Shown here piece after piece: positions 2,633 through 64,000 of a stretch of DNA of 64,000 bases. Each line of letters opens with the position of its first letter. Positions within the stretch are counted from its first letter, which is position 1. Below the pieces are notes generated by a model, which was not told the origin of the DNA, ran no database searches, and saw nothing but the letters and a program-made list of their open reading frames with translations. This DNA is from Schmidtea polychroa (lineage: Eukaryota): assembly GCA_044892525.1 (NCBI GenBank), contig CM097888.1, positions 72,106,001 to 72,170,000 on the forward strand, in the 5' to 3' direction. The position numbers and the translations under genes are program-made.

Positions 2633-10007
<7,375 letters not shown>

Positions 10008-20705: not shown

Positions 20706-22734
20706 TGGGATTTGCACTGGGTATCACAAAGGTTGTAATGTTTATATTAGAATAATAAATATTTATGTTAATTGATTTAGAGATATTTCCGCAATTAGGG
20801 GAAATCACTTGTGTGACTAGCAAAACTAATGTGTTTAAAGTGCAAGTCAGGAGTTTTAAAATTTAAAAAGGAGTTTTTGAAGTTATATTTGGATCCTTTA
20901 TAAAATCTTTAATTTGATATATTTGTTGGTGAAAATAAAATTTGAACAGAATGCATGAATCCAGATAACGATATTTGGTAAACGATTAGTTCATCGAAAA
21001 CAAATTAGTCGAATGATCAATTCACTGATGAACTTACCCGGGAATCATTGAAAATACTTTTCTGATTAGATCACTCCCTAATGTCAACGTTATATATCTA
21101 ATCTTTCTCATTTTACCAGTAACTATGACAACATCCTAGAGGTCGTTCTTTGAGCTTAAACTATCTGCATATTTCAAAGTTACAAGATAGACGAACAGCT
21201 TTAGCCAATCTTAGCATAGAAAACGAACATGCGAAGAAAACCTACGTTGATGAACTTGTTAACATTTGTGCAGTGAGAAAGCGTCGCAGAAAGAAATTCT
21301 GTACATATTGTAGAATGTATATTGTAGTTGATTTTTATTAAACAACCAAACTGGCTTAATTAAATGTTTAAAGAATAACAGCGCGTTTACCGGCAAATGA
21401 ATGTGGGGGCTCGAATATAAAGGTTATATGGGACCTGTGCTGAAAAATCTTTATAATTAGATTTCAAACATTCATATCTCAAATCTCAATCCCGAGATTT
21501 GGGATTGATGTCAATCTCGATATTTTGCGATTTTAATAGTCATTCTGCTCAGATTTTTATTTATAATGCTTGAATTAATATTTGCCGATGAAAGGTATAT
21601 TTATTTTTTATATCATTTATTTTGTTTGGTGTTTTTACTTTTGAAATATTTTGAATTGAATTATGAAAAAAACTCACCTTAATTATGAAAGGATCTTCAT
21701 GATAATTTTTATGTAAATCCAATAATGAACTTTAATCGAATTTTATTGTTTCTTTATCAATTTTATTATGATTATATTATGATTATTATTAATTATTATT
21801 TTATTTATTTCGTTAAAGCTTGTGGATACTCATTCTCAGTGCGGTGATTAATGAATGATCATATTCGATACTTGAACAGTAATCACTGAAAAACTCGAGC
21901 TTCCTCAGTAGTCTCTCTCACACGATCTGCAATCAGAAGCACGCACCCAAGTGATTTATGCGAAAGTCCAAAAGTAAGGCCAGTAATAAAATATCGTTAC
22001 ACTAATGTAACAAGACTAGACGTAGAAGTGCTCACTGTAAGTTATAAACAAATGCCTCTAGTTCGAATTTCTGCTGACAATCTCTGCGCCAGCTAACTTC
22101 TCTATTCCATGTTTGATTACCTCTGCCGAGCTACTGAACACTCCGTAATTTAATATTCAATATCGACCTAGATTTTGACCAAGATCACTGTTTTTTTTAC
22201 TTCTTCATATAAACAATGTCTCCCTACTGTATGTGGAAAAAATTGTATCATGGAAAACAAATTTTCTTTCCAACAATAAATTTTTACCAATTGCCGCAAT
22301 AAAGTGTAACTGTTTTCTGCTCATTTTCATCTGTTTCTCAAACGTAAGAGGACAATTAAAATAATTTCATTACAATAAATATGACTTAAAAAAACAATTT
22401 TCATTCACAGCGCATTTTAATTATTCGATTTTTATTATACCAAATTAAATTTATGCTTCATGTTTATGTCACGTGAATTCAAATTAAATTGGAAGTCAGA
22501 TTTTTCCAGAAATATTCATAGATTGCATAATTAATTTTTATTGATTAAAGTGTTTTCTCAAGTGTAAAAATCTATTAAACTTTANNNNNNNNNNNNNNNN
22601 NNNNNNNNNNNNNNNNNNNNNNNNNNNNNNNNNNNNNNNNNNNNNNNNNNNNNNNNNNNNNNNNNNNNNNNNNNNNNNNNNNNNNNNNNNNNNNNNNNNN
22701 NNNNNNNNNNNNNNNNNNNNNNNNNNNNNNATCT

Positions 22735-38722: not shown

Positions 38723-41700
38723 CAGGGCTGGACTGGAAACACATTTAGGCCCGGGAAATATCGGTGACGTAGGTCCACAATATTAAATTTAAGAAAAAAA
38801 AATTTGAAAAAAGTACATTAGTAATTTATAATCGTATTTATTAAAATAATAAAAAAGAGTTTTTTTGATAATTGCAATCAAAATCAACATTAAGTAATTA
38901 AAAATAATTAAATAAATATTATTAATTAAACAAGTTTTTTTAATATTTCACTTTTTTCTCTCATTACCTCAATTACTCTATTATTGCCAATGTTATTTAG
39001 AATATCTTTTCACACGCCATGAGCATACATGCTTCCAAATGTTTCTGACCTAAACAATTTCTGAGTCAATTTAAAATATATTTTAACTTTGAAAAAGATC
39101 TCTCACAAGATACTTGTGTTGATGATAAATTAATAACAAATTTGTACGCTAAAAATAAATTTGAGTATGCTAGTGTATCCAGATGAACTTTTTGCAAAAA
39201 CTGTATAACAGCATAGAATACAATTTCTGCATAATTTGCATGATCTTACTGTATTAATCTGTTCATCATCTTCTTCATCACAAAACAATTCACTGCTATT
39301 ATCTGCTAGAGTACCATTAAAAACTTTCCACTTTTTTGAAAATCTATTAGTTCAGCTTTCAAAATTTTCTTCGTAATATTTTTATTTAATTTTTGATTTA
39401 TTAAATTAGTTAAAGGTTCAAAAATTATGATAAAATAAAAAAGTTTAACAAAAAACAATCCATTTATTACTTTATTTCATTTTTTTCGATTGACATATAT
39501 ATAAAAAAACAGAATTTATAAGAATGATTTTTTCCTGGCTTTCATGTCTGCAAATTTTTCTATTGCTGCCTCCAAATTTAGGTTTGCTACAACATTATTT
39601 TCAATTGAAATAATGGTCAAATTATTCAACCTATCTTCCGTCATAGTAGATCGCAAATACGTTTTTATTAGTTTTAATTTACTAAAACTTCTTTCACCAC
39701 TCGCAACACTAACAGGAATTGTTACGAGGATTCGTAAAGCCACCCACAGATTTGGTACTGTAATTAATTCGTTTTGTATAGTTTTTCCACAATAATGAAC
39801 ATGAATTTCTTGTGAGACCACCCTGCGCAAATGCTCATTTAATGGTAAATCAAATTTTCCTAGAAGTTCAACAAGGCCTAAAAAATTTCCATTATGCGGA
39901 AGAAATAACTTATCACAAGAACCCCGAAATGCTAAATTATTTTTTGACAAAAATAATTTTATGTTTATTAATCTTTCTAGTACCTTTTTCCAATTATATT
40001 TTTCTTGGACTATCAAAGACTGCAAATTCTTATCAATAGTTTTATTGCCTTTTAATCTTAATCGAGTTTCTATCCAGTTTTTTTCACATTTTAAATGTGA
40101 AACTGACCGTTCGTGCATTTTCAAGCTGTCGTGAATATTTTTCCAATCCGATAAACCAGATTTGGCTAGATTTGACCTACCTGATGGATTAAAAAGTTTG
40201 CAAAAAAAACAAAATACAGAATTTTTGGATTCTGAATAGTGCAACCATTTTCTTAGGAATTTTTCACCATTACTTATTTGACGATAAAAAAGCGAATTGG
40301 AAAAGCTTCGATTATTTTCATCTCTTGGATAAATATGTTGTTGATTACACCTTTCTTCGTTTCCATATAAGTCCGTTACAACTATATGGTCAATTTCCGT
40401 ATGTTTTAAATTTTGTGGCCATAGCCCAATATCATTATAATTTAAAATATTTTCAAATACAGAATGAGTTGAATCACTAGGAACAATTATTTCAGTTCCG
40501 TGAGAAGACATTAAATTATCCTCATTGATAATATTACAATTTTCAGCTTCTGATGACACATTACCTATATCGTCTTCTGAGCTTGAAGATGTTGACTCGA
40601 AATGTTGATTATCATCGGCTACTGATTTACTGGAATTAAAATATTTCAATATTTTATCGTGCTTATCAGCTTGTTGTTGTCTATTTATTTTTCGTTTCCG
40701 ATATTCATACCCACTCAATTTTTTTGGTGGCATCTTAGCTATGGCATAAATTTATATAAATATATTATATATTTTCCAATATATTTTTAAAAAATGATCT
40801 TAATCTTACCTTACCTCTTATATATTTATATTTTTAAAACAGAATAGGAATACAAATTTAATTTGAACAAACTGCAACAACACATTAGTTACACACACGA
40901 AACAAAAAAAATTGTTAAAAAAAACTGGTAGCTATAGCTGTTAATTTAACTCGCACATCAGTTTTTGTAATACATACATATAATTTTTTTTTATTTCAAT
41001 TTTCAATACATATCAGAATTTCTCAGAATTGGAAATTCGTATATTTTGCATGTACTTTTTTTTTTGTTTTTTCTTATTTTCAATTTTTTTTAAAACGGTT
41101 GGTTTCATAGATAAATTTCAAAATATAAAGTTTTGGAGGCTTATTTTATAATTTACTTTGATTGTTTATAATAAATTTTGGCGCCCTCTAAAAAAAGGCA
41201 CCCTAGGCTATGGCCTAGGTCGCCTGGCCCTTGGGCCGGGCCTGGTGACTAGGTATATTAATACTTGAAATTTGTAGGAAATTATTTGGATCTAAATAGA
41301 ATATATCATTATAAAGAGGATCATTTTTTAAAAATCGTACATTCATGAAACTGGTAACTGCATCCATTATAACATTATAAAAACTTATACAAAATCTATC
41401 GTTAGAATTACCCGTTCTATTTCTTTTATGTTTTTGACATAACATTGTTTCAATTTCAATTCCGATTTCTCTCTTGTCTAGTTCTTTGTTTGCAGCCAAT
41501 GCAAAATTTACTGCTGCTTGATATACAGTATCAAAATCTCTTTGTATTTTAAAAAGATTTTTAGTCGAATTTTTACCATACCAAATGCAATTGCAATATC
41601 CATACCTGATGTTTGTAAGTATGATGACAAAGTTGTTGTTTCTTCAAATATTCGTAAATATATTTGAGCTGTTAAAATAATATCAAATTATAGAAACGTG

Positions 41701-50433: not shown

Positions 50434-51378
50434 ATGCAAGGCTATACAAATCTCGCTAATATTGCTGTAATCAATCCACTCTCTACAATGGATACGACAA
50501 AGAATTCTCATCCTCTCTACAATGGTTATCCTAATCCGAAAAAAGCTCGCTTGATTCAACATGTCGTATTTTCTAAAACCGCAGCAGCGAACGGATCGGA
50601 ATTACCAGGAATTGATATCGATGCAAGCACTATCGGGTCAATGAATAATAATAATGTTCCAAACAAAATTCAATCGCATACACCATCAGAACACAATCCA
50701 TATTCTACACTGATGGCAAACAATGCAACAACCTGCTTCTATTCTCCGGGATTTTTGGAACCATATGTAATCAATACAGAAAATCTTACCCAATCAGCAG
50801 CCCAAACATTTGATTTAACAAGGATTCCTGTTTCGAATAAAACTTATTGCTCATTTCCCAATCCAAGTTCAGCGTTAAGCAGCATATTTCTAACTGGAGG
50901 TGGCATTGAATGGTCTGGTGCACCATTATCCACATCCAATCCATTTCAATGCATTTCAAGTTCCACAACAGACAACATGAAATCAAATAACATAAACTAT
51001 CAAAGTTCATATGGTGATTGTAATGATATCACCAATTCCCTACTAAATAACCTCAAATCAAGAGATGTATTTCAAGCCCAACAAGAATACAACAACCGAT
51101 ATTCCGATAATCCTCCATCATATTTGAAATATGATCAATCTCCAGTTGAATGGTATAAGTTGAAAGAAGAAACGTAGGCTTTTTGCGTTTTTATGGTTTA
51201 ATAGAAAATTTCAAATTTAAATTTTCTAGCCGACCAAATTGTTCTGTTCCAACAGCTCTCTCTTCGGATCAACTTAGCAATGGCTATGATTACAACTATC
51301 GAGAGATGAAAGAGAAAAGAAAATGTGATGTTTGTGGAGATGTTTCCGCTGGATTTCATTGTAGTGCATTCGTTTGTG
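50434..51378 (+). CDS. Nuclear hormone receptor, 5' part (long A/B region plus first half of the DBD), continuing into a gap
   Basis: 247-codon ORF, a phase-2 intron (donor 51153 or 51174, acceptor 51229), then CDVCGDVSAGFHCSAFVC followed by a codon starting with G. The C-x2-C-x13-C spacing is that of nuclear receptor zinc finger 1. Confidence 0.8.
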
Positions 51379-53521
51379 NNNNNNNNNNNNNNNNNNNNNN
51401 NNNNNNNNNNNNNNNNNNNNNNNNNNNNNNNNNNNNNNNNNNNNNNNNNNNNNNNNNNNNNNNNNNNNNNNNNNNNNNNNNNNNNNNNNNNNNNNNNNNN
51501 NNNNNNNNNNNNNNNNNNNNNNNNNNNNNNNNNNNNNNNNNNNNNNNNNNNNNNNNNNNNNNNNNNNNNNNNNNNNNNNNNNNNNNNNNNNNNNNNNNNN
51601 NNNNNNNNNNNNNNNNNNNNNNNNNNNNNNNNNNNNNNNNNNNNNNNNNGAAAATTATTTCATTTTATTAAATATATACGTTGCAAACGCTATCTTTAAA
51701 TTATTTAACTTCTCAACTTTTCAAGACAATTGTCGTTTTTTTAATTTTCCAAAATGATCATCATTTATTTTGAAATTTATATCACTCAAATATTTACCAA
51801 AATTAACGAAATAAAGACCGTTTAAAACTTATCAAAATGAAAATCAATAAAAATATAAACTTAATTTGAAAAACAATTAAAATAATGATAATTATCCAGA
51901 AAGTCACACATGTCAGCACTGGGGGAAAAAACTGAAAATGTTTCACGTTTTAATTTCTTTTCACCATATTGTCGTAAATTGATTTGTGAAGCTCTGCACT
52001 TTTGCTGCTTTAGTGCTGGTTTCTCAGACCGAAATGGCATTATTGATTGATTGAATTTTAGAAAGGAAATTAAAATAGAAAATATTTCAATCGAAATTAT
52101 TGTACATTTTCAATAAAAAGAATAAAATTATTATCGATAAGAAATGATTTCATTAATTTTACGGTTCTTTTTATTGGTGTTGTATTTTATAAATGATAAT
52201 TAAATTAATGTTTGGCAAATGTTTGGGTAATATATTTTAATTGAACATTCATCTTTTTGACTTTTAAAATTCTGTAATGAATTCTAAACCCCTGAAGCTT
52301 TGAAGGATCTTCCTTATATGTTTTAAAAGTTATTAATTTAAGTATGTCATTTATATGTATCACATCATAACATGAATATGGAAACCGAAGCTTTATTTGT
52401 GACACGATATGAAAAGACAAAACAAATTAGGTCTGACTCGAAAATTTAAGTAATCATGTAAACTGAAGTAATTTTTATGCGTGATTAATTCTGATCCATG
52501 CTGAGTTAGGATTACCGTTAAGCTAACTAGGCTGCCTATGACGCAAACCTCAAAGATGCTTATTTATAGACTGTCAACACTCGCGATTCAGGATAGAAAC
52601 GGGACTAAACGCGATTAAATCGAACTATTCGGTTAGATGTATTGTAATGTAATTTCAATGCAAAATCCAAAATAAGATGAGTCATCAATGGAAGTGGGAT
52701 GAAAAGGCTGGTATTCGAGAAAGAAGTTTAAAAAGGGGATATTATGTTGCTATTAGATAATAGAAATAAAATCGGAAAAAGAATAAAAGCATTATATTCA
52801 GTGAAATATGGTAAAAGAAGAATAATAAAAGTGTTTCTGGGAGTCAAGGAAGTAATATATCTTAAATGTATAGAATATTTCCATAGGGAATTGAAAGGAG
52901 AAAGGAAAACTTGATTGACTTATACAGGGAGAAAAATATGTTTGATAGGTAAATTCGGAATCATCGAAATTATAAAAATTAGATAATAAATGAAATTTCA
53001 ACTCGTTCATCCAAATTGGTCCGACACATAGCGATATCACACCAGGAAGAATTGCTAAAACGTTTTATTGATATACATTGCTGATGCGTATAATTGTATA
53101 ATATATGTTGATTATAATATAAAAAGGTTTTTAAAAAATATTCTCAAATATAAGTGACCGAATTTACATGAAATTCCATAAAAAATAAAACGGTAAAGGG
53201 ACTAACAATTGTTTCGATAGTTGTTATAACAAGAATTTTTGATCAATTGTAAGTTTTCCCAACATCATTACATCGTTATGGATATTTTCATTTCTCAATA
53301 CAAAATACTTATCATAAATTTTATTTTGCACTTGCACGTTAATGTAAGTTAACTAATTTAAGAGAAAAAGGAAAATATTTTCCTCAGAAATAGAAATTGT
53401 TACCATCATATACTCCTATAAACCACTCAGTTGAAAGATATTTGCAAACTTTCGAAAAGTGCATGAATTTAATAATCAATTAAATGGACTTATTATCACT
53501 TTTTAACATATAGTATATTAA

Positions 53522-53756: not shown

Positions 53757-54049
53757 TTAAGATCTGATATTAAATGGTTAAAATTGAACGAGAATTAAGA
53801 AATTATTATTTAAAAAGTATTAACAATTTAAATAAGAGAACTATTTATTCGCTATGTATTTTTTACTAAACGCTATGTATTTTATAAACACTTTCTATGT
53901 AGATAAATACACAGTATCAGTAGAGTAAAACACTTCTATGTTAATTAATTAATTCTAGATATTTAATACATTCGCTAAGTAATTAACTAAAAACTACGTA
54001 AAATAAATAAATGCCAAGTCAAGAAAACAAGTTATAAGTAAAATAAAAA

Positions 54050-54853
54050 AACGATATGTCAATTAATAAAATCGATCAATAATGCTGATACAACTTATAA
54101 ACTGGTTTGGCAGGGCTATCCAATTTTAATCATTTGTACAACCGATTTAGATAGGCATTTTCATTCGTTTGGCCTAGGCATATGTACCAATGAAAAAACT
54201 GCTGATTTTAATTTTATTGTTTCAAGTATCAATATTGGCTTGAAAAAAATAAATGCATCATTATTCAATCCTCGTGTATTGATTTCTGATGCCTCTAACG
54301 CTATACGTAAAGCTTATTCACAAGTTTTTGATAAAAATGAAATTGTGATGTGTTGGGCACATATGCGTAGAAATTGTATCAAAAAAATCGAGTCTTTAGT
54401 AGCTAAAGAAGATCAAAACGAATTAATTGAAGATGTAGATCAACTTCAATTGTCACAAAGCCAAGTCATTTTTGAAAAAGCAAGTTCTCTATTTTTTAAA
54501 AAATGGAGACAAAAAAAGCGACTGAGTTTTTAGACTATATGAATATGATGTGGCTTACGACACACAATACGTGGTATGAAGGATACATGCCCTTCAGGCC
54601 AAGTACTAACAATAATCTAGAGTCAAATAATCGAGTTCTTAAAGACGAAGAAACTATTAGAGAGCGCACGCCATTATCTAGATTTAGCAAACAAGCTTTA
54701 GATACTGTTAAAAAGTGGTCACTAGCATTCGATCAATTTACGAAGCGAGCTTTTACTGTCTGGCGCATTAATTTATCAAACGATAAAGCCAATTTGGCCG
54801 ACGGTCAGTGCAATTGTCCAGCATTTTTAAAAAAATTTATTTGCAAGCATGTT
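54050..54853 (+). pseudogene. MULE transposase fragment truncated inside its SWIM finger
   Basis: ADTTYKLVWQGYP, ISDAS, MCWAHMRR, PSTNNNLESNNRVLK, CNCPAFLKKFICKHV. One frameshift near 54520; similarity ends abruptly after CKHV at 54853. Confidence 0.85.
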
Positions 54854-55197
54854 AGTAGGTAGTTAGTGGCTTACGGCAGCAATAGGGGGGGGGGGGTAAA
54901 AAATGTTGCAAACTTTTGATTGCATAACTTTTTCCGTAGACATTTTTTGATTACATAATTGTTGCCGTAATGCCCAATGTTTTCTGGGATTTTAAATACA
55001 AATTTTTTTTTTTTTTTTTTTTCAATAAACAAGCCAAGGATAAATATTATTTGGGTGGGTCTCCTTGGTCCTGAGAATTTCAATAGAAAAAGGTAGTCTT
55101 CAATAAAAAAGCATGGATTTTTCACACTATAGTGAGGGGATCTTCTTGGTCATGAGAATTTCAATAGAAAAGGTGGTTTACATTAAAAAAACGCATA

Positions 55198-55830
55198 GTA
55201 AATTTTTAAAATAAAGCAAATTATGGGTCTAAAATTTAAAAATAAAGTAAATGATGGGTCTAAAAATTTAAGTAAATCAAGGTTCAGATTTATTTTTGAA
55301 ATAAAGTAAATTATGGTCTAAATAAGTAAATTATGGGCTAAGATTTTTCAATTAAAGTAAATAATGGTTCTAAAAAATTAAATTACAGTAAATTATGGTC
55401 CAAATTTTTAAATTAAAGTAAATTATGGTTCTTAAAAATTAAATTAAAGTAAATTATGGTCAAAATTTTTGAATTACAGTCCAAAAATTTAAATTAAAGT
55501 AAATTATGATCCAAATTTTTAAATTAAAGTAAATAATGGTTCTAAAAAATTAAATTAAAGTAAATAATGGTCCAAATATTTTAAATTACAGTAAATAATG
55601 GTTCTAAAAATTAAATTACAGTAAATAATGGTCAAAAATTTTAAAATTAAAGTAAATTATGGTTCTAAAAATTAAATTACAGTAAATAATGGTCAAAAAT
55701 TTTAAAATTAAAGTAAATTATGGTTCTAAAAATTAAATTAAAGTTAATTAAGGTCAAAAATTTTAAAATTAAAGTAATAATTTTTAAATAAGTAAATTAA
55801 AGTAATGTAATAAGTAAATTAAAGTAAGAT
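55198..55830. repeat. Subterminal minisatellite, about 30-bp monomer with a 61-bp higher-order unit
   Basis: About 20 units of AAATTA(A/C)AGTAAAT(A/T)ATGGT...; 55621-55681 is repeated at 55682-55742. Confidence 0.85.
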
Positions 55831-56235: not shown

Positions 56236-59200
56236 TTAGTCCTCATCGGACAAAATAACGTCATCGATATCGATGTCATCTTCTCCAAAATCTTCATTTA
56301 ATTCTTCCTCATCTTCTCCATCATTTTCTCCAACATTTTCTGAAACATTTTCTGCAACAATTTCTCCAACATTTTCTCCAATATTTAATTCACTTAATCT
56401 TACATGCCCATATGCAAGACTAGTATTTTTCCCCACCCAAACCCTTTTGTCATCTTTGTTAGTTAGTGCTATTTTTGTGTTTTTAATTGTAAAAATTTGA
56501 TGATTTTTGCTTGTTATTTTAGTCTGAGGAACCGAAAAAATCTGGTTAGTGTTATAACAATCCAGGTATGACTGATGTTTTATGTCACTACCTTTCAATG
56601 TTACACCTTTAGCCTTTTTTGTTTCCTCATCACTCAACAAGCTATAACATTTAGGTCTAAGAAAAACCCACTCCTTATATTTAAGACCTTTATTCTCGTC
56701 TTTGAACTTTCCAATGACTGAATCAAGGTTCTTACTATATAAGGAATGACAACTATTGTAATTGGAAGTATCCAATAAATTATCTCGAACCATTGCAGGT
56801 AAAAGAACCTCAAGTTTGCAGTTAATGACTTCGAGGAAAAAAGAATCTGTATCACCTGCAACGATATTAATTTTACAATTAAACTCATTGCGAATTGATT
56901 CCAGATCCTTATATTGCAATTCATACATTCTAAGTTTAGATAGATCAAGTACAGATTGACCAATGTAACTCGGTCTATCTAAACATATAGAATCTGAATT
57001 CAATAGTGCTGCAATTAAATTATCTGCTATTTTAATAGATTTTTTAAAAGTTGGTTTTGACGAATATTTAACTAATTTACCGGCAGTTGTACAAAGACGA
57101 AGATTCATTCTTCTCTTTAAATTTTCAACTGTTTTGCCGTATAAACTATTATTTAGCAATTTATAATAATTTTTATCTAAGCTATTTACGCTTTTTGATC
57201 TTAATTCAGTATTTGTATCTATATATTTTTTAAAAATTGGTGATTGCTTAAATCTTACACCCCTATTTACACGTGTTACTTTAACACCAAGTTCCAAATA
57301 TAATTTTAATAATCTCCAATGAATAACATAATTAGATTTTGGAAGATGAGTTAATAATAATTTTTCAACCTTAGACCCAGCAGGTTTCATTTTTTCAGCA
57401 GCTACAGGGAAATCATCCAACTTATCATGAAGCTCAGAAGGAATTACAAGATCAACTTCAAGTGTGTATCCATAAGACAAAGATTCAAGATTTAAATTCC
57501 TACATTCATCCATTATTTTATCAAATCCATCAAGAACCCAACAAAATTCGCCACAAGGTAATGATTGACTTAAAGCCCAGCCATAAAGATTATTAATATC
57601 TATATATAGTAACTCAGTGTTCTCGTCGGTTTTTACGTAATGCTTATTCACAAAAGTAAGACCGCCTCTTATTCCACCCTCATAAAAGCTAAACATTTCG
57701 TTTTCAGTTATGAGTTCAATTGGTTCATTTAAAGACATTAATGCAGAAGACCAAGACATGCCTGGAATTCCGAAATAATTCAATGGTTCCAATCTATTGT
57801 GAGCAATGGATTTCAACCGAAACTGATGAAAGAAATCAGCCAAAAGAAAACAATCAAGTTTTAGGTAGATCATCATATAATCTAATAAAGTTACGCAATT
57901 AGTTTCTACCCAAATCTCCTGAGCTTTTTCATACTCAAGCTCAGTGACACCCTCCCAGATTGGTGGTAATTCATAAGTAGTTTGGAGAATATCTAAAGAA
58001 GTGGCGAAATTATAAGGGAAGATTCCTTTTTCACTTACTATGGTGCCAGAAAAAGCAGAATTAGTAAAAGGCAAAGAATTCAAAGTTTTGACTGCTTTAG
58101 CCAAAGAATCATTGACAAATTGATACGAATCAATGAATCTTAGGCTAATTTTACCTAAATGAGCAATCAAAGATATAAATTTTTCCGTAGTTATTGGGAT
58201 GCACCCTAAATTCCAATTTTTAAATTTATTTAATCCATATTTAAGTATATGGTGCATATCGTATCCCTTCAAGTTGTGAAATACGATAGGCAAAATTTTA
58301 TTTATTTTTCTATTTACGTTACATGTGCTACAAGCTGCACCCAAGTATTTCCCCATAAAATGATCGTGATCTCTAACAGGATCCACGATAGATTTCAAAC
58401 AAAGATAACAAACCGTTGAATTAATGAATTGTTGTTGCTCAATTTTCGTTAATTTAATCATTGGTTTCCTACCCATTTTATAATAAAAAGGAAGAACCTT
58501 ATTTAATGCTATATCCTCTATAGCACTTAAAAAACTCTCGACGCAATCTAAACCTATGAACTGCTGATAAGATTTAGATCCGTCAAAGTTATTTACTAGT
58601 AAAAGACCAGCAGATATTGGCATGTGTCGCTGAAAATGATCATTATCAGAAGGTAAAATAGCCTCAAAATCGGCATAAACTACAAAAGGAGGAGTTACTG
58701 TTTTCGACCAGTCAGTAAACTGTAAGAATTTATTTTGAGGGAAAGTATAAAGAGTTGTTCCTAATTGATTACGTTTGCATAATATTTCATGTTTTTCTAG
58801 TGCGTTTCTATTATTAAACCCATTCAAACACCGATGGCACCATAATGAACGTATGCGTGTAGGACAAGTAGTGTTGATACCACAATTCAATAACCTATTT
58901 AAATTGCTTATAGCAACGTAATGGAAATTGTTCCCTTTATTTAATAATAGTAAATTAATTACAGTTCCATTTAAAACTTTGGAACGATGTATAATGTCTA
59001 AATGTGGGTGTTTTAAAACGTAATTATCTATTAATTGTTTGTTATTGTCATAAGAAAAAACGTTAATTATTAAACCAGGATTTTTGGCCTCGAATTTTCT
59101 AATATCTTTTAATTTCATGGGTAAGTCCAATGGATTATATATTAATTCAGATAAATTATAACTGGATGTCCTATTTCTAGCATAACTACTAACCTCATCA

Positions 59201-60577
59201 TATTTTAAAATAGCTAAAATGCTATATAAAAAACATGAATCATCGGTGTTTTTTATATTAATTAAACAATATTTATTTTTTAGATAAGTAGGTAGTTCAA
59301 TGAAACTCCTACCACTTAATCTACTTAGCCTACTTATCTTTGTTATGGTGAAGTGAATTTCTGTTATTTTTTTTATGATCCAGCTACTTCCTAACTCTGT
59401 GATATTACTTATTTTCTCGTTTAGTTCCCTAATGCCTTCGTCAAAAAATGATGCAGTTAAAGGCTTTGCATAATTTGAGATATTATTAACCTTTATTTCC
59501 CCGTCTTTTTCAAATTCGATTGTTATTCCGAATTGAATTTTGACGGAGACTAATTCGTTAATAATATCTCGTAATTTTTTTATTAGTTGTTCAGGAAATA
59601 TTATTTCTTTTATATTTAAGTCGCTTGTATTTAAGCTTAATATTTGATGGGTACCTCTTAGATCTTTTTGTATTATTGGAACATTTCCACCTATTTGTAT
59701 TATATTTAATCCATCCCAAGAGTCAAGGGAAATATTATCTAATCCGACCTGGGATTCAACAACCAATCCATCATGGGATTCGACAACCAATCCATCATTG
59801 GATTCCACAAAAGGCAATCCGACCTGGGATTCAAAAGAAGAAGTATCTAATTTAATTTTTTTATTTTTATTATTTTTTTCTATAGTTGAGGGTCTTTTAA
59901 AAACACTATCTTTTTTAAAATTAAACCTATCTAAATGATTTTTATGTTTATTATAAAAAACGCTATATGTTACGGGGTCACTAGTCTTACATACGGGACA
60001 TATAAAATAAGTTTTATTATAATATTTTTTTGTGTAATAATTCTCCATTATAGAATGGCAATTATTATCATGTTCTTTCGATGAACAATAATTTGGGTAA
60101 AGTATACCTATAAAATAAAAATTTAATAAAAAAAATATAATTTAAATGAAATATTTTAGTAAATGTTTACGCAAAAATTTGCAAATTATTATTATTTTAC
60201 AAATTTTATTTACTAAAAAATAAAAATTTACTAAATTAAAAATATTAACATTTACTTAAATAAAAAATTATATTAAATTTCCTTTAAATTATAAAAAGTA
60301 ATCAATACTTACATTGTAAATTTTCATTTCGATTTATTGACACATTGACATAATTTTTTTCTTTATTCGTATTACCTAAATTATTAATTAATTAAATCAA
60401 TAAATTAAAAATTATGTTTACTTTTTCTTTTCAAATTTCCTTTAATCTTAGATTTTAAATTGTCTTCATTAATATTATCTAAATTAATTAATAAATTAAT
60501 TAATAAATAAATTAAAATTTACCAAATTTCTGAATTTTTTCTCGGACATTCATAACGTTTTCTATTAAAGAATTCAT
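56236..60577 (-). CDS. polB: Protein-primed family B DNA polymerase, left-arm copy, spliced, about 1348 aa
   Basis: Exons 60577-60523, 60478-60422, 60375-60313 and 60107-56236 join in frame, adding 78 aa to the 1270-aa ORF. Exo I YADFE, Exo II HNLKGYD, Exo III YLKLD, motif A DINNLYG, motif B KLLNNSLYGK, motif C AGDTDS, plus KCY and KAKGV. EndoVII insert at 58318-58410. No stops or frameshifts. Confidence 0.95.
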
Positions 60578-60616
60578 TTTTAAAGGTTAACTATTTGTTA
60601 AATGTGACTAATGATT

Positions 60617-60720
60617 GATTATTGTTTATAGATTATTATTGTTTATAGATTATTATTGTTTATAGATTATTATTGTTTATAGATTATTATTATTGTTCAT
60701 AGGAACAAATTCTAACCAAT
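60617..60720 (-). promoter_or_regulatory. Putative polB promoter, left arm
   Basis: CCAAT element at 60716-60720 and four 17-bp repeats each containing TATAAA, 40-140 bp upstream of the ATG at 60577. Confidence 0.55.
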
Positions 60721-61205
60721 CAAAATCAAGGAAGGGTAGGAAAAAATTAATTTATTTTAAAACACATTTTGACGCTAAAGTTGACTTATTTAACATTTTC
60801 ATAATAATTTAATAAAAATAATGTGATGAACCCACAAAGTAATATCATTTTTCATCAAATTGCAAAACAGTAATAACGTTTTCATAAAATTGTAACAAAG
60901 TAATAACATATTTCAGATAAATTTTCAACAGTTGTAAAATATTTAAGCAAATTGTAACAAGATTAGAAAATATTACAACAAAGTAGTAACATATTTCAGA
61001 AAATTTCAACAAAGTTGTAAAATATTTATCAAATTGTAACTAAAATAATAAAAATATTGCAACAAAGTAATAAAATAATAATGGTAATTAAGACAAATCA
61101 ATACATTATTTCGAAGATGGACAACAAATTAAAAAGAATATTGTAACTAAAATAATAAAAATATTGCAACAAAGTAATAAAATAATACAACATTTTAAAC
61201 TCTAG

Positions 61206-61770
61206 ATCAATCCATTTTATAGAAAATTAAATTTTATCTATATAATATATGAATAAATATCCAAGGAAATTACGTTAACGTATAATAAATACAAATTTAT
61301 CGTAAAAACATGTGTGTATTACACACAAAACAAGATACATAATTTCTAATCAATCCATTTTATAGAAAATTAAATTTTATCTATATATTATATGAATAAA
61401 ATCCTAAGAAAATTACGTTAACTGTATAATAAATACAAATTTATCGTAAAAACATGTGTGTATTACACACAAAACAAGATACATAATTTCTAATCAATCC
61501 ATTTTATAGAAAATTAAATTTTATCTATATATTATATGAATAAAATCCTAAGAAAATTACGTTAACTGTATGAAAAATACAAATTTATCATAAAAACATG
61601 TGTGTATTACACACAACATACGAGACATAATTTTTAATCAAGCTATTTTATAGAAAATTAAATTTTATCTATATAATATATGAATAAAAATCCAAGAAAA
61701 TTACGTTAACCGCGCGAAAAACTACAAATTTATTGTAAAAACATGTGTGCATTACACACAAAGCATCAAA
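61206..61770. repeat. Four ~144-bp tandem repeats with internal palindromes, left arm
   Basis: Unit starts at 61206, 61349, 61493 and 61637. Each holds TGTGTGTA-T-TACACACA (one substitution in unit 4) and TACGTTAAC(GTA). Confidence 0.9.
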
Positions 61771-61899
61771 CTGAAATTGTAATTGCGCCATGTTGTAGAG
61801 AATTAAATTCTGCCTATACATTGTTACACTTAAATCTCGATCAGACATGTGAAAAGAGACATAAAAGAGAAAGAACAGTAGAGTAGTATGATTGGGGCC

Positions 61900-61979
61900 A
61901 TCCAGACCAGGTCACCGCCAGGCCACATATACCCTCTCCCCCCCCCCCCCCCCTGTGTGTAAAATAATGAGGCCAAGCG
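61900..61979. other. 80-bp asymmetric GC-rich spacer at the palindrome axis
   Basis: Non-palindromic, with a C16 run at 61938-61953 and several GGCC motifs. Flanked by ...AGTAGAGTAGTATGATTGGGGCC and GGCCCCAATCATACTACTCTACT.... Confidence 0.9.
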
Positions 61980-62108
61980 GGCCCCAATCATACTACTCTA
62001 CTGTTCTTTCTCTTTTATGTCTCTTTTCACAGGTCTGATCGAAATTTAAGTGTAACAATGTATAGGCAGAATTTAATTCTCTACAACACGGCGCAATTAC
62101 AATTTCAG

Positions 62109-62673
62109 TTTGGTGCTTTGTGTGTAATGCACACATGTTTTTACAATAAATTTGTATTTTTTCGCGCGCTTAACGTTATTTTCTTGGATTTTTATTCATT
62201 TAATATATAGATAAAATTTAATTTTCTATAAAATAGCTTGATTAAAAATTATGTCTCGTATGTTGTGTGTAATACACACATGTTTTTACGATAAATTTGT
62301 ATTTTTCATACAGTTAACGTAATTTTCTTAGGATTTTATTCATATGATATATAGATAAAATTTAATTTTCTATAAAATGGATTGATTAGAAATTATGTCT
62401 CGTATGTTGTGTGTAATACACACATGTTTTTACGATAAATTTGTATTTATTATACAGTTAACGTAATTTTCTTAGGATTTTATTCATATAATATATAGAT
62501 AAAATTTAATTTTCTATAAAATGGATTGATTAGAAATTATGTATCTTGTTTTGTGTGTAATACACACATGTTTTTACGATAAATTTGTATTTATTATACG
62601 TTAACGTAATTTCCTTGGATATTTATTCATATATTATATAGATAAAATTTAATTTTCTATAAAATGGATTGAT
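62109..62673. repeat. Four ~144-bp tandem repeats, right-arm mirror
   Basis: Reverse complement of 61206-61770 with about 12 substitutions. Confidence 0.9.
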
Positions 62674-63158
62674 CTAGAGTTTAAAATGTTGTATTATTTT
62701 ATTACTTTGTTGCAATATTTTTATTATTTTAGTTACAATATTCTTTTTAATTTGTTGTCCATCTTCGAAATAATGTATTGATTTGTCTTAATTACCATTA
62801 TTATTTTATTACTTTGTTGCAATATTTTTATTATTTTAGTTACAATTTGATAAATATTTTACAACTTTGTTGAAATTTTCTGAAATATGTTACTACTTTG
62901 TTGTAATATTTTCTAATCTTGTTACAATTTGCTTAAATATTTTACAACTGTTGAAAATTTATCTGAAATATGTTATTACTTTGTTACAATTTTATGAAAA
63001 CGTTATTACTGTTTTGCAATTTGATGAAAAATGATATTACTTTGTGGGTTCATCACATTATTTTTATTAAATTATTATGAAAATGTTAAATAAGTCAACT
63101 TTAGCGTCAAAATGTGTTTTAAAATAAATTAATTTTTTCCTACCCTTCCTTGATTTTG

Positions 63159-63262
63159 ATTGGTTAGAATTTGTTCCTATGAACAATAATAATAATCTAT
63201 AAACAATAATAATCTATAAACAATAATAATCTATAAACAATAATAATCTATAAACAATAATC
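63159..63262 (+). promoter_or_regulatory. Putative polB promoter, right arm
   Basis: ATTGG at 63159-63163, CTATAAACAATAATAAT units starting at 63197, 63214, 63231 and 63248, Inr-like TCATTAGTC, ATG at 63302. Confidence 0.55.
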
Positions 63263-63301
63263 AATCATTAGTCACATTTAACAAATAGTTAACCTTTAAA
63301 A

Positions 63302-64000
63302 ATGAATTCTTTAATAGAAAACGTTATGAATGTCCGAGAAAAAATTCAGAAATTTGGTAAATTTTAATTTATTTATTAATTAATTTATTAATTAATTTAG
63401 ATAATATTAATGAAGACAATTTAAAATCTAAGATTAAAGGAAATTTGAAAAGAAAAAGTAAACATAATTTTTAATTTATTGATTTAATTAATTAATAATT
63501 TAGGTAATACGAATAAAGAAAAAAATTATGTCAATCTGTCAATAAATCGAAATGAAAATTTACAATGTAAGTATTGATTACTTTTTATAATTTAAAGGAA
63601 ATTTAATATAATTTTTTATTTAAGTAAATGTTAATATTTTTAATTTAGTAAATTTTTATTTTTTAGTAAATAAAATTTTTAAAATAATAATAATTTGCAA
63701 ATTTTTGCGTAAACATTTACTAAAATATTTCATTTAAATTATATTTTTTTTATTAAATTTTTATTTTATAGGTATACTTTACCCAAATTATTGTTCATCG
63801 AAAGAACATGATAATAATTGCCATTCTATAATGGAGAATTATTACACAAAAAAATATTATAATAAAACTTATTTTATATGTCCCGTATGTAAGACTAGTG
63901 ACCCCGTAACATATAGCGTTTTTTATAATAAACATAAAAATCATTTAGATAGGTTTAATTTTAAAAAAGATAGTGTTTTTAAAAGACCCTCAACTATAGA
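63302..64000 (+). CDS. polB: Protein-primed DNA polymerase B, right-arm copy (5' part; runs off the window)
   Basis: Exons 63302-63356, 63401-63457, 63504-63566 and 63772 onward give MNSLIENVMNVREK...LQCILYPNYCSSKEHDNNCHSIMENYYTKK...FKRPSTI. Identical to the left copy except one V/L change in exon 3. Confidence 0.92.

Follow-up and report, generated by a model that had tools for sequence, protein, structure and literature searches.

The window analysed here is a stretch of 64,000 nucleotides from Schmidtea polychroa (assembly GCA_044892525.1, contig CM097888.1, forward-strand positions 72,106,001 to 72,170,000), and positions beyond its right edge are given as window equivalents. It contains an exon of a nuclear-receptor gene, a damaged MULE and, inserted in that MULE, the left arm and part of the right arm of a large palindrome with Polinton-type ends. 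The features, with coordinates and strand, are as follows.

4048..4967: miniature element with a third family of Polinton-type ends (AGTAGTAGG...), 56-nt inverted ends and duplication GTGATA; separate from the palindrome
51230..51379 (+): host nuclear-receptor exon that encodes the first zinc finger, as far as readable; no donor site visible
53827..53835 (+): left copy of the 9-bp MULE target duplication (TTTAAATAA); right copy at window-equivalent 69420-69428
53836..54853 (+): left part of an internally deleted, frameshifted MULE, with TIR, MULE-domain frame (54042-54533) and SWIM frame (54500-54853)
54848..54853 (+): left copy of the 6-bp target site duplication CATGTT; single copy in 13/19 sister MULEs
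54854..54900 (+): left terminus of the palindromic Polinton derivative (AGTAGGTAGTTAG..., G12 run 54885-54896)
55204..55805 (+): subterminal array of ~31-bp AT-rich repeats (repeat families D1 and D6)
56236..60107 (-): pPolB main exon, left arm; carries exonuclease and polymerase motifs in a 1301-aa frame that extends stop to stop as far as 60141
60130..61881: inner arm unmatched in the complete sister family; 144-bp repeats at 61137-61856
60313..60577 (-): predicted spliced pPolB leader; mini-exons 60523-60577, 60422-60478 and 60313-60375, all introns phase 1
61882..61997: centre, with inward-facing ends of another Polinton family (AGTAGTATGAT...ATCATACTACT); 80-nt loop 61900-61979; flanks mirrored and not duplicated
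61980..64000 (+): in-window part of the right arm, which reaches window-equivalent 69030 and carries the second pPolB copy

Insertion junction, target MULE and host gene

An earlier note on this DNA had placed an integration junction at CATGTT (54848-54853), followed by AGTAGGTAGTTAGTGGC from 54854 and by the G12 run at 54885-54896, and the left side reads as described there. It had also predicted a mirror-image terminus near 69025, followed by a second CATGTT and by resumed MULE coding sequence. The reverse-complement terminus was found ending at window-equivalent 69030 (G000:C4:72175030), the 5-base offset consisting of four extra G in the run and one 1-base insertion. A second CATGTT lies directly after it (window-equivalent 69031-69036), and from window-equivalent 69037 the MULE frame resumes as HVVGISISLKYCK.... 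Position 54854 is a real insertion point, which supports the earlier interpretation, and the junction, with its target duplication, shows that the 14-kb palindrome was truly inserted and is no fold-back made in assembly.

A site with a single CATGTT was found in 13 of 19 sister MULE loci, the other 6 being outside the search motif, and none of the 19 has a tandem CATGTT duplication or a Polinton terminus. Contigs of runs X2 and X7 pass uninterrupted through the insertion site and look like sister MULE paralogues. They were rejected as an empty allele because they match sister copies, and the X7 contig keeps 198 bases that are absent from the window MULE. Among the listed X-run contigs, none spans the junction or the whole element. 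The empty-site evidence for the insertion comes from paralogous MULE copies. Nested insertion with a target duplication is ordinary, and the architecture of the family is the interesting part.

MULE/Mutator elements have TIRs and a target duplication of ~9 bp. The MULE at this locus spans 53836 to window-equivalent 69419 with both TIRs and 9-bp duplication present, and has at least 39 sister copies in the genome. It is like MULE/Mutator elements with a SWIM finger (Pfam PF10551, PF04434) in its MULE and SWIM domains, TIRs and 9-bp duplication, and unlike them in two internal deletions, a frameshift and the 14-kb insertion. The translation of 54500-54862, ...CNCPAFLKKFICKHV, has a Pfam SWIM match (E 9.5e-6); the frame preceding it matches the MULE domain (E 1.6e-11, Pfam). 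All four SWIM ligands (CxC...CxH) lie to the left of the insertion, which falls just past the last ligand, so that the finger described earlier as split is cut at the end of its motif (Pfam SWIM positions 2-30 of 38 are on the left) and keeps its metal-binding core whole. Relative to sister copies the window MULE lacks ~830 and ~198 bases and is frameshifted, leaving the transposase in two frames and none intact. The Polinton insertion is therefore not its sole lesion, and the MULE is broken at three places besides the insertion.

The next nuclear-receptor exons begin at window-equivalent 69758 and ~70056, and with exon 51230-51379 on the left this puts the MULE and palindrome nest inside the intervening intron, which splits the first DNA-binding domain of the receptor. 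Matches to zf-C4 were found in four exons, in order, giving two DNA-binding domains with CEGCKG as the second P-box. The available text on 2DBD receptors describes two DNA-binding domains and the same second P-box, CEGCKG (PMC1810520). At the first P-box, where CEACKK is expected for a 2DBD receptor, the readable sequence is limited to the beginning of the box and the K that follows the intron. The host gene is likely a two-DBD nuclear receptor. Given the intronic position, a double-stranded stem of 7 kb would form part of the host pre-mRNA, a matter of relevance to splicing, RNA editing and small-RNA silencing.

Other repeats in the window are separate from the nest. The miniature element at 4048 had been noted as sharing the AGTAG start; the five bases are indeed common to both, but the element begins AGTAGTAGG and has the ends of a different Polinton-type family. 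An end similar to its AGTAGTAGGATGTGAG ends adjoins, elsewhere, a pPolB sequence of another family, which is itself invaded by a sister element. A hAT-type transposase fragment lies at 39516-40751 (-) (PF05699, E 3.6e-11). A 344-nt inverted repeat with 98% complementarity (3585-3928 and 22387-22730, 18.5 kb apart) has an uncertain length, one arm being partly unreadable, and may bound another large element.

The palindrome and its relatives in the genome

The insert is a 14,177-bp palindrome with arms of ~7 kb that are 99.66% complementary, an 80-nt loop and one outward-reading pPolB gene per arm. PF03175 matched the C-terminal 588 aa of pPolB (E 4.7e-21); when the full 1301-aa frame was the query, PF03175 was absent from the result. 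The frame contains strings matching exonuclease and polymerase motifs. A phmmer search of pPolB against PDB gave no match, and a weak Endonuclease VII-like match lies at residues 574-609 (E 0.014, below the cut-off). On the right arm the pPolB frame is interrupted near its N-terminus, the longest frame being 1207 aa. An alignment of the two arms has 24 differing columns, among them haplotypes that other copies also carry, and the inner 430 bp of the arms represent two haplotypes, each of which occurs on both arms of other copies. The centre is reduced to 116 bp between the inner ends, and this short loop junction occurs once in the genome.

Exact matches to the 27-base terminus number 140 forward and 142 reverse (282, or ~140 elements) genome-wide, with 0 for the reversed control, so that the recurrence is not due to chance. 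Forty-five terminus pairs were examined, comprising 40 paired on contig C1 among the matches listed and 5 elsewhere; 18 were read whole, and 27 whole or by the central 10 kb. Matching 6-bp target duplications flank 25 of the 26 pairs read at both ends, and the exception is a 38-kb pair composed of two elements. pPolB is present on both arms in 40/45 pairs and in one copy in 1, and the remaining 4 gave no pPolB hit, 3 of these being clearly gene-less palindromes. In the 45 pairs no Polinton integrase was found inside an element (a 25% hit lies between the two elements of the 38-kb pair), and no packaging ATPase or capsid was matched by queries made of family-B ORFs and three other capsid-locus ORF sets. 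The 18 whole elements have no frame of at least 200 aa besides pPolB. With neither integrase nor capsid hits inside it, the element does not qualify as an autonomous Polinton and behaves more like a satellite that brings its own polymerase. The family of ~140 all-hairpin derivatives is young. The capsid-family search also yielded another, more distant Polinton group that is unmatched to the family-B capsid.

Ends of a related, sister type (pattern AGTAGGTAG[AT]TAG[GT]AG[AC]CC) occur 1711 times in the genome. Ten integrase loci were sampled among 40 listed, giving 7 single loci and 3 inverted pairs. All 7 single loci are 16-18 kb long, with AGTAGGTAGATAG ends, 6-bp duplications and hits to ATPase, integrase, capsid and pPolB. 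A class of integrase-bearing elements with these ends that lack pPolB, of which there was one such copy, was considered and failed, because these 7 further single loci all have pPolB. Sister-family and palindrome termini are identical over the first 9 bases, and sister pPolB is 93-99% identical to window pPolB beyond the first 600 nt and 82-88% before. The window arm matches the polymerase end of the sister family up to ~60130 and no further inward. By these matches, the sister family is likely both parent and helper of the palindrome. A second complete Polinton family, with at least 109 integrase copies, could be an alternative helper.

The 3 inverted integrase pairs (C2:165.60M, C1:216.07M and C1:67.84M) are all palindromes of the integrase/capsid half, with ATPase, integrase and capsid mirrored and no pPolB hit. 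No inner terminus was found at the folds of these three, so inner ends are not required for fold-back. Gene-less palindromes of 12-17 kb were also seen, among 4/6 pairs with family-B ends and 9/10 pairs with sister-family ends.

In most copies of the polymerase palindrome the centre is a ~1-kb miniature with the ends of the complete family B, and its flanks are mirrored, not directly duplicated. Family B has 884 end matches and one element with ATPase, integrase and pPolB at 56% identity; it was rejected as parent for this low pPolB identity and contributes inner ends only. A second group of inner cassettes has a miniature of ~270-330 bp with sister-family ends, mirrored flanks and the same outer terminus, and in both cassettes the mirror starts precisely at the ends of the nested miniature. 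The tree lost its outgroup, which had too many gaps, and leaves one versus two cassette origins undecided. One further palindrome has a similar inner cassette and a pPolB that is 46% identical, so the cassette is common to different polymerase lineages.

Arm concordance, selection and expression

Arms were compared over pPolB nt 300-2400, with both arms covered in 40 of 51 stretches. The median number of substitutions per 2.1 kb is 1 between the arms of one element versus 37 between elements. For 49 of 80 arms the partner arm is strictly the nearest sequence, and for 11 it is tied; of the copy-specific substitutions, 44 occur on both arms and 33 on a single arm. In two copies the arms belong to different sublineages, with 45 and 59 discordant inherited sites, and the 6-bp duplication matches in the one hybrid-arm copy checked. 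These hybrids, together with the two inner haplotypes of the window copy, indicate that homogenisation is not obligatory. When the hybrids are left out, the arms of a copy diverge by 0.03-0.08% in seven segments and by ~0.3% at the outer end and beside the centre. The steady gradient of arm divergence expected from end re-synthesis was not seen, so repair during replication and gene conversion after insertion are not separated by these data.

Private changes on one arm have an N:S of 27:6, against a neutral expectation of 2.9-3.9, and private changes on both arms have 25:19 (Fisher p 0.027 versus one-arm). The two-arm count is 24:17 when sister alleles are removed (p 0.03; 0.08 on a shorter range). 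Variants present in four or more elements have an N:S of 28:59, and the 130 shared variants unseen in 7 sister copies have 53:77 (p 2e-15). Inherited pPolB variants are therefore under apparent purifying selection, although part of the synonymous excess may have come in by recombination, perhaps from unsampled complete elements, since the comparison covered just 7 sister copies and the tree does not resolve cleanly. Many copies have pPolB frames broken on both arms, which indicates that polymerase can come in trans, and some frameshifts are common to several copies, so broken lineages spread too.

One contig of run X10 (depth 5.6), a run presumed to be RNA, skips the 46-nt GT-AG leader intron at 60376-60421, whose sequence is unmatched in the sister family. 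A contig of the same run and depth covers the neighbouring upstream leader intron in unspliced form. This is only suggestive of splicing of the pPolB leader.

Proposed origin and comparison with known systems

We propose, with a probability of roughly 0.7, that the locus holds a 14,177-bp palindromic, integrase-less Polinton derivative in a broken MULE, likely inserted by the integrase of the sister family and likely replicated as a hairpin with its own polymerase. The lineage would have originated from a sister-family pPolB end that was joined to a miniature Polinton and folded back at the inverted ends of the miniature, which would account for the mirrored inner flanks; the folded-back end would then have been copied into a mirror arm, founding the palindromes. 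In the adenovirus panhandle model a displaced strand folds and remakes the origin, and the Kapitonov-Jurka model for Polintons reportedly has strand displacement from a protein-primed end. Protein-primed strand displacement would here free a strand that forms a 7-kb hairpin, the open end of which is again an origin. Repair or re-synthesis on this hairpin would keep the arms alike and so explain their concordance, and pairing between strands of different copies would give hybrid-arm elements. The double-stranded form would be integrated, and perhaps packaged, by helper proteins; with no integrase in the element, that enzyme would have to be supplied in trans, the sister family being the simplest source.

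The palindrome might alternatively be a passive non-autonomous unit that depends on a helper for polymerase and integrase, with pPolB as a passenger and with arms equalised by gene conversion after insertion. Gene-less palindromes with the same or related ends do exist with target duplications (4/45, and 4/6 for family B), and both the frameshifts common to several copies and the flat divergence along the arm would fit such a unit. We nevertheless consider it unlikely, since neutral conversion predicts no depletion of amino-acid changes in two-arm relative to one-arm variants, and such a depletion was found (p 0.027), along with the 53:77 ratio for shared variants unseen in sister copies and one contig with a spliced leader intron. 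Less probable again is that every palindrome arose independently from a complete element as a snap-back dead end, founding no self-propagating lineage. Palindromes come from both halves of the sister family (3/3 inverted integrase pairs) with differing fold points, which suggests that fold-back is frequent in this genome; set against de novo formation are the inner cassette and junction that most copies share and that are unmatched in 7 complete elements, the recurrence of inner haplotypes across copies, and the 130 shared variants unseen in 7 complete copies.

Long-read data are known to yield long perfect inverted repeats as artefacts, and fold-back reads could in principle have produced the palindrome during assembly, the more so as its 80-nt loop junction is unique and none of the listed contigs covers the junction or the element. 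We regard this as very improbable, because the flanks are not mirrored and the MULE and host gene continue correctly past the 6-bp duplication, the arms differ at 24 alignment columns that include haplotypes of other copies, and the same anatomy occurs at 40/45 loci. Beyond the hairpin derivative that we favour, a broader system is possible, and is put forward tentatively: the polymerase-half, integrase/capsid-half and gene-less palindromes may be complementing snap-back half-genomes of one Polinton virus, which would replicate in hairpin form, swap arms and inner cassettes, and provide one another with the proteins that each lacks. Palindromes of the various kinds are mostly 11-18 kb, like the parent. 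If true, the hairpin intermediate that has long been proposed for Polinton replication would have its first genomic record in the matching arms and the selected polymerase, and the retained size would point to packaging in particles.

Polinton replication and particle formation in animals are known largely by analogy. With ~140 hairpin derivatives and their likely helper in one genome, direct tests of hairpin DNA, protein-capped ends and a size limit can be made. New here are the confirmed far end and the recognition of the sister family, not the inner-end donor, as likely parent and helper, and also the opposite-half palindromes, the arm and selection counts, and the intronic position. In snap-back or copy-back defective genomes, and in the adenovirus panhandle, one end is copied twice around a loop, and such genomes are helper-dependent. 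The proposed palindrome cycle resembles these in all such points, and the palindrome differs in being chromosomally integrated and heritable, with a polymerase under apparent selection.

Polintons/Mavericks are 13-25 kb long with inverted repeats of 100-1500 bp, according to the available parts of the papers describing them (PMC8097293, PMC11161782, PMC6431247, 10.1101/2023.08.22.554363). The same material gives a 6-bp duplication (range 5-8) at AG-starting ends as their insertion mark (PMC8097293, 10.1101/2023.08.22.554363), (AGT)2 or (AG)3 as end motifs in vertebrates (PMC8097293), TP-vOTU domains at the pPolB N-terminus (PMC11161782), and no observation of Polinton particles (PMC8097293). 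The palindrome is like these elements, so far as they are described there, in its pPolB, AG-starting inverted ends, 6-bp duplication and size near the range. It is unlike them in that integrase, ATPase and capsid gave no hit and further long frames would not fit, and in its 7-kb inverted repeats, which contain its only gene. Its end AGTAGG is neither (AGT)2 nor (AG)3, in a motif list that covers vertebrates only, and the complete sister elements share AGTAGG. Its pPolB has a predicted spliced leader, whereas intact vertebrate Polintons are described as intronless in the text available. Nematode remnants with pPolB and TIRs and no integrase are on record (10.1101/2024.01.15.575659), in a text whose available part does not contain "palindrom". 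Palindromic polymerase-only Polintons are not described in the literature searched, and Repbase and paper supplements may contain them.

The nearest described case to fold-back at a nested miniature, in the portion of the source available, is that of the fungal invertrons pAL2-1, kalilo and maranhar in mitochondrial DNA, for which racquet or panhandle intermediates have been invoked (PMC1864894). There too an element of protein-primed type is flanked by new long inverted repeats of neighbouring DNA, the counterpart of which in the palindrome is the mirrored arms around the miniature Polinton. The product in the fungi is a rearranged mitochondrial genome made with integrase uninvolved (PMC1864894), whereas the palindrome has its own outer termini and target duplications and occupies ~140 nuclear sites.
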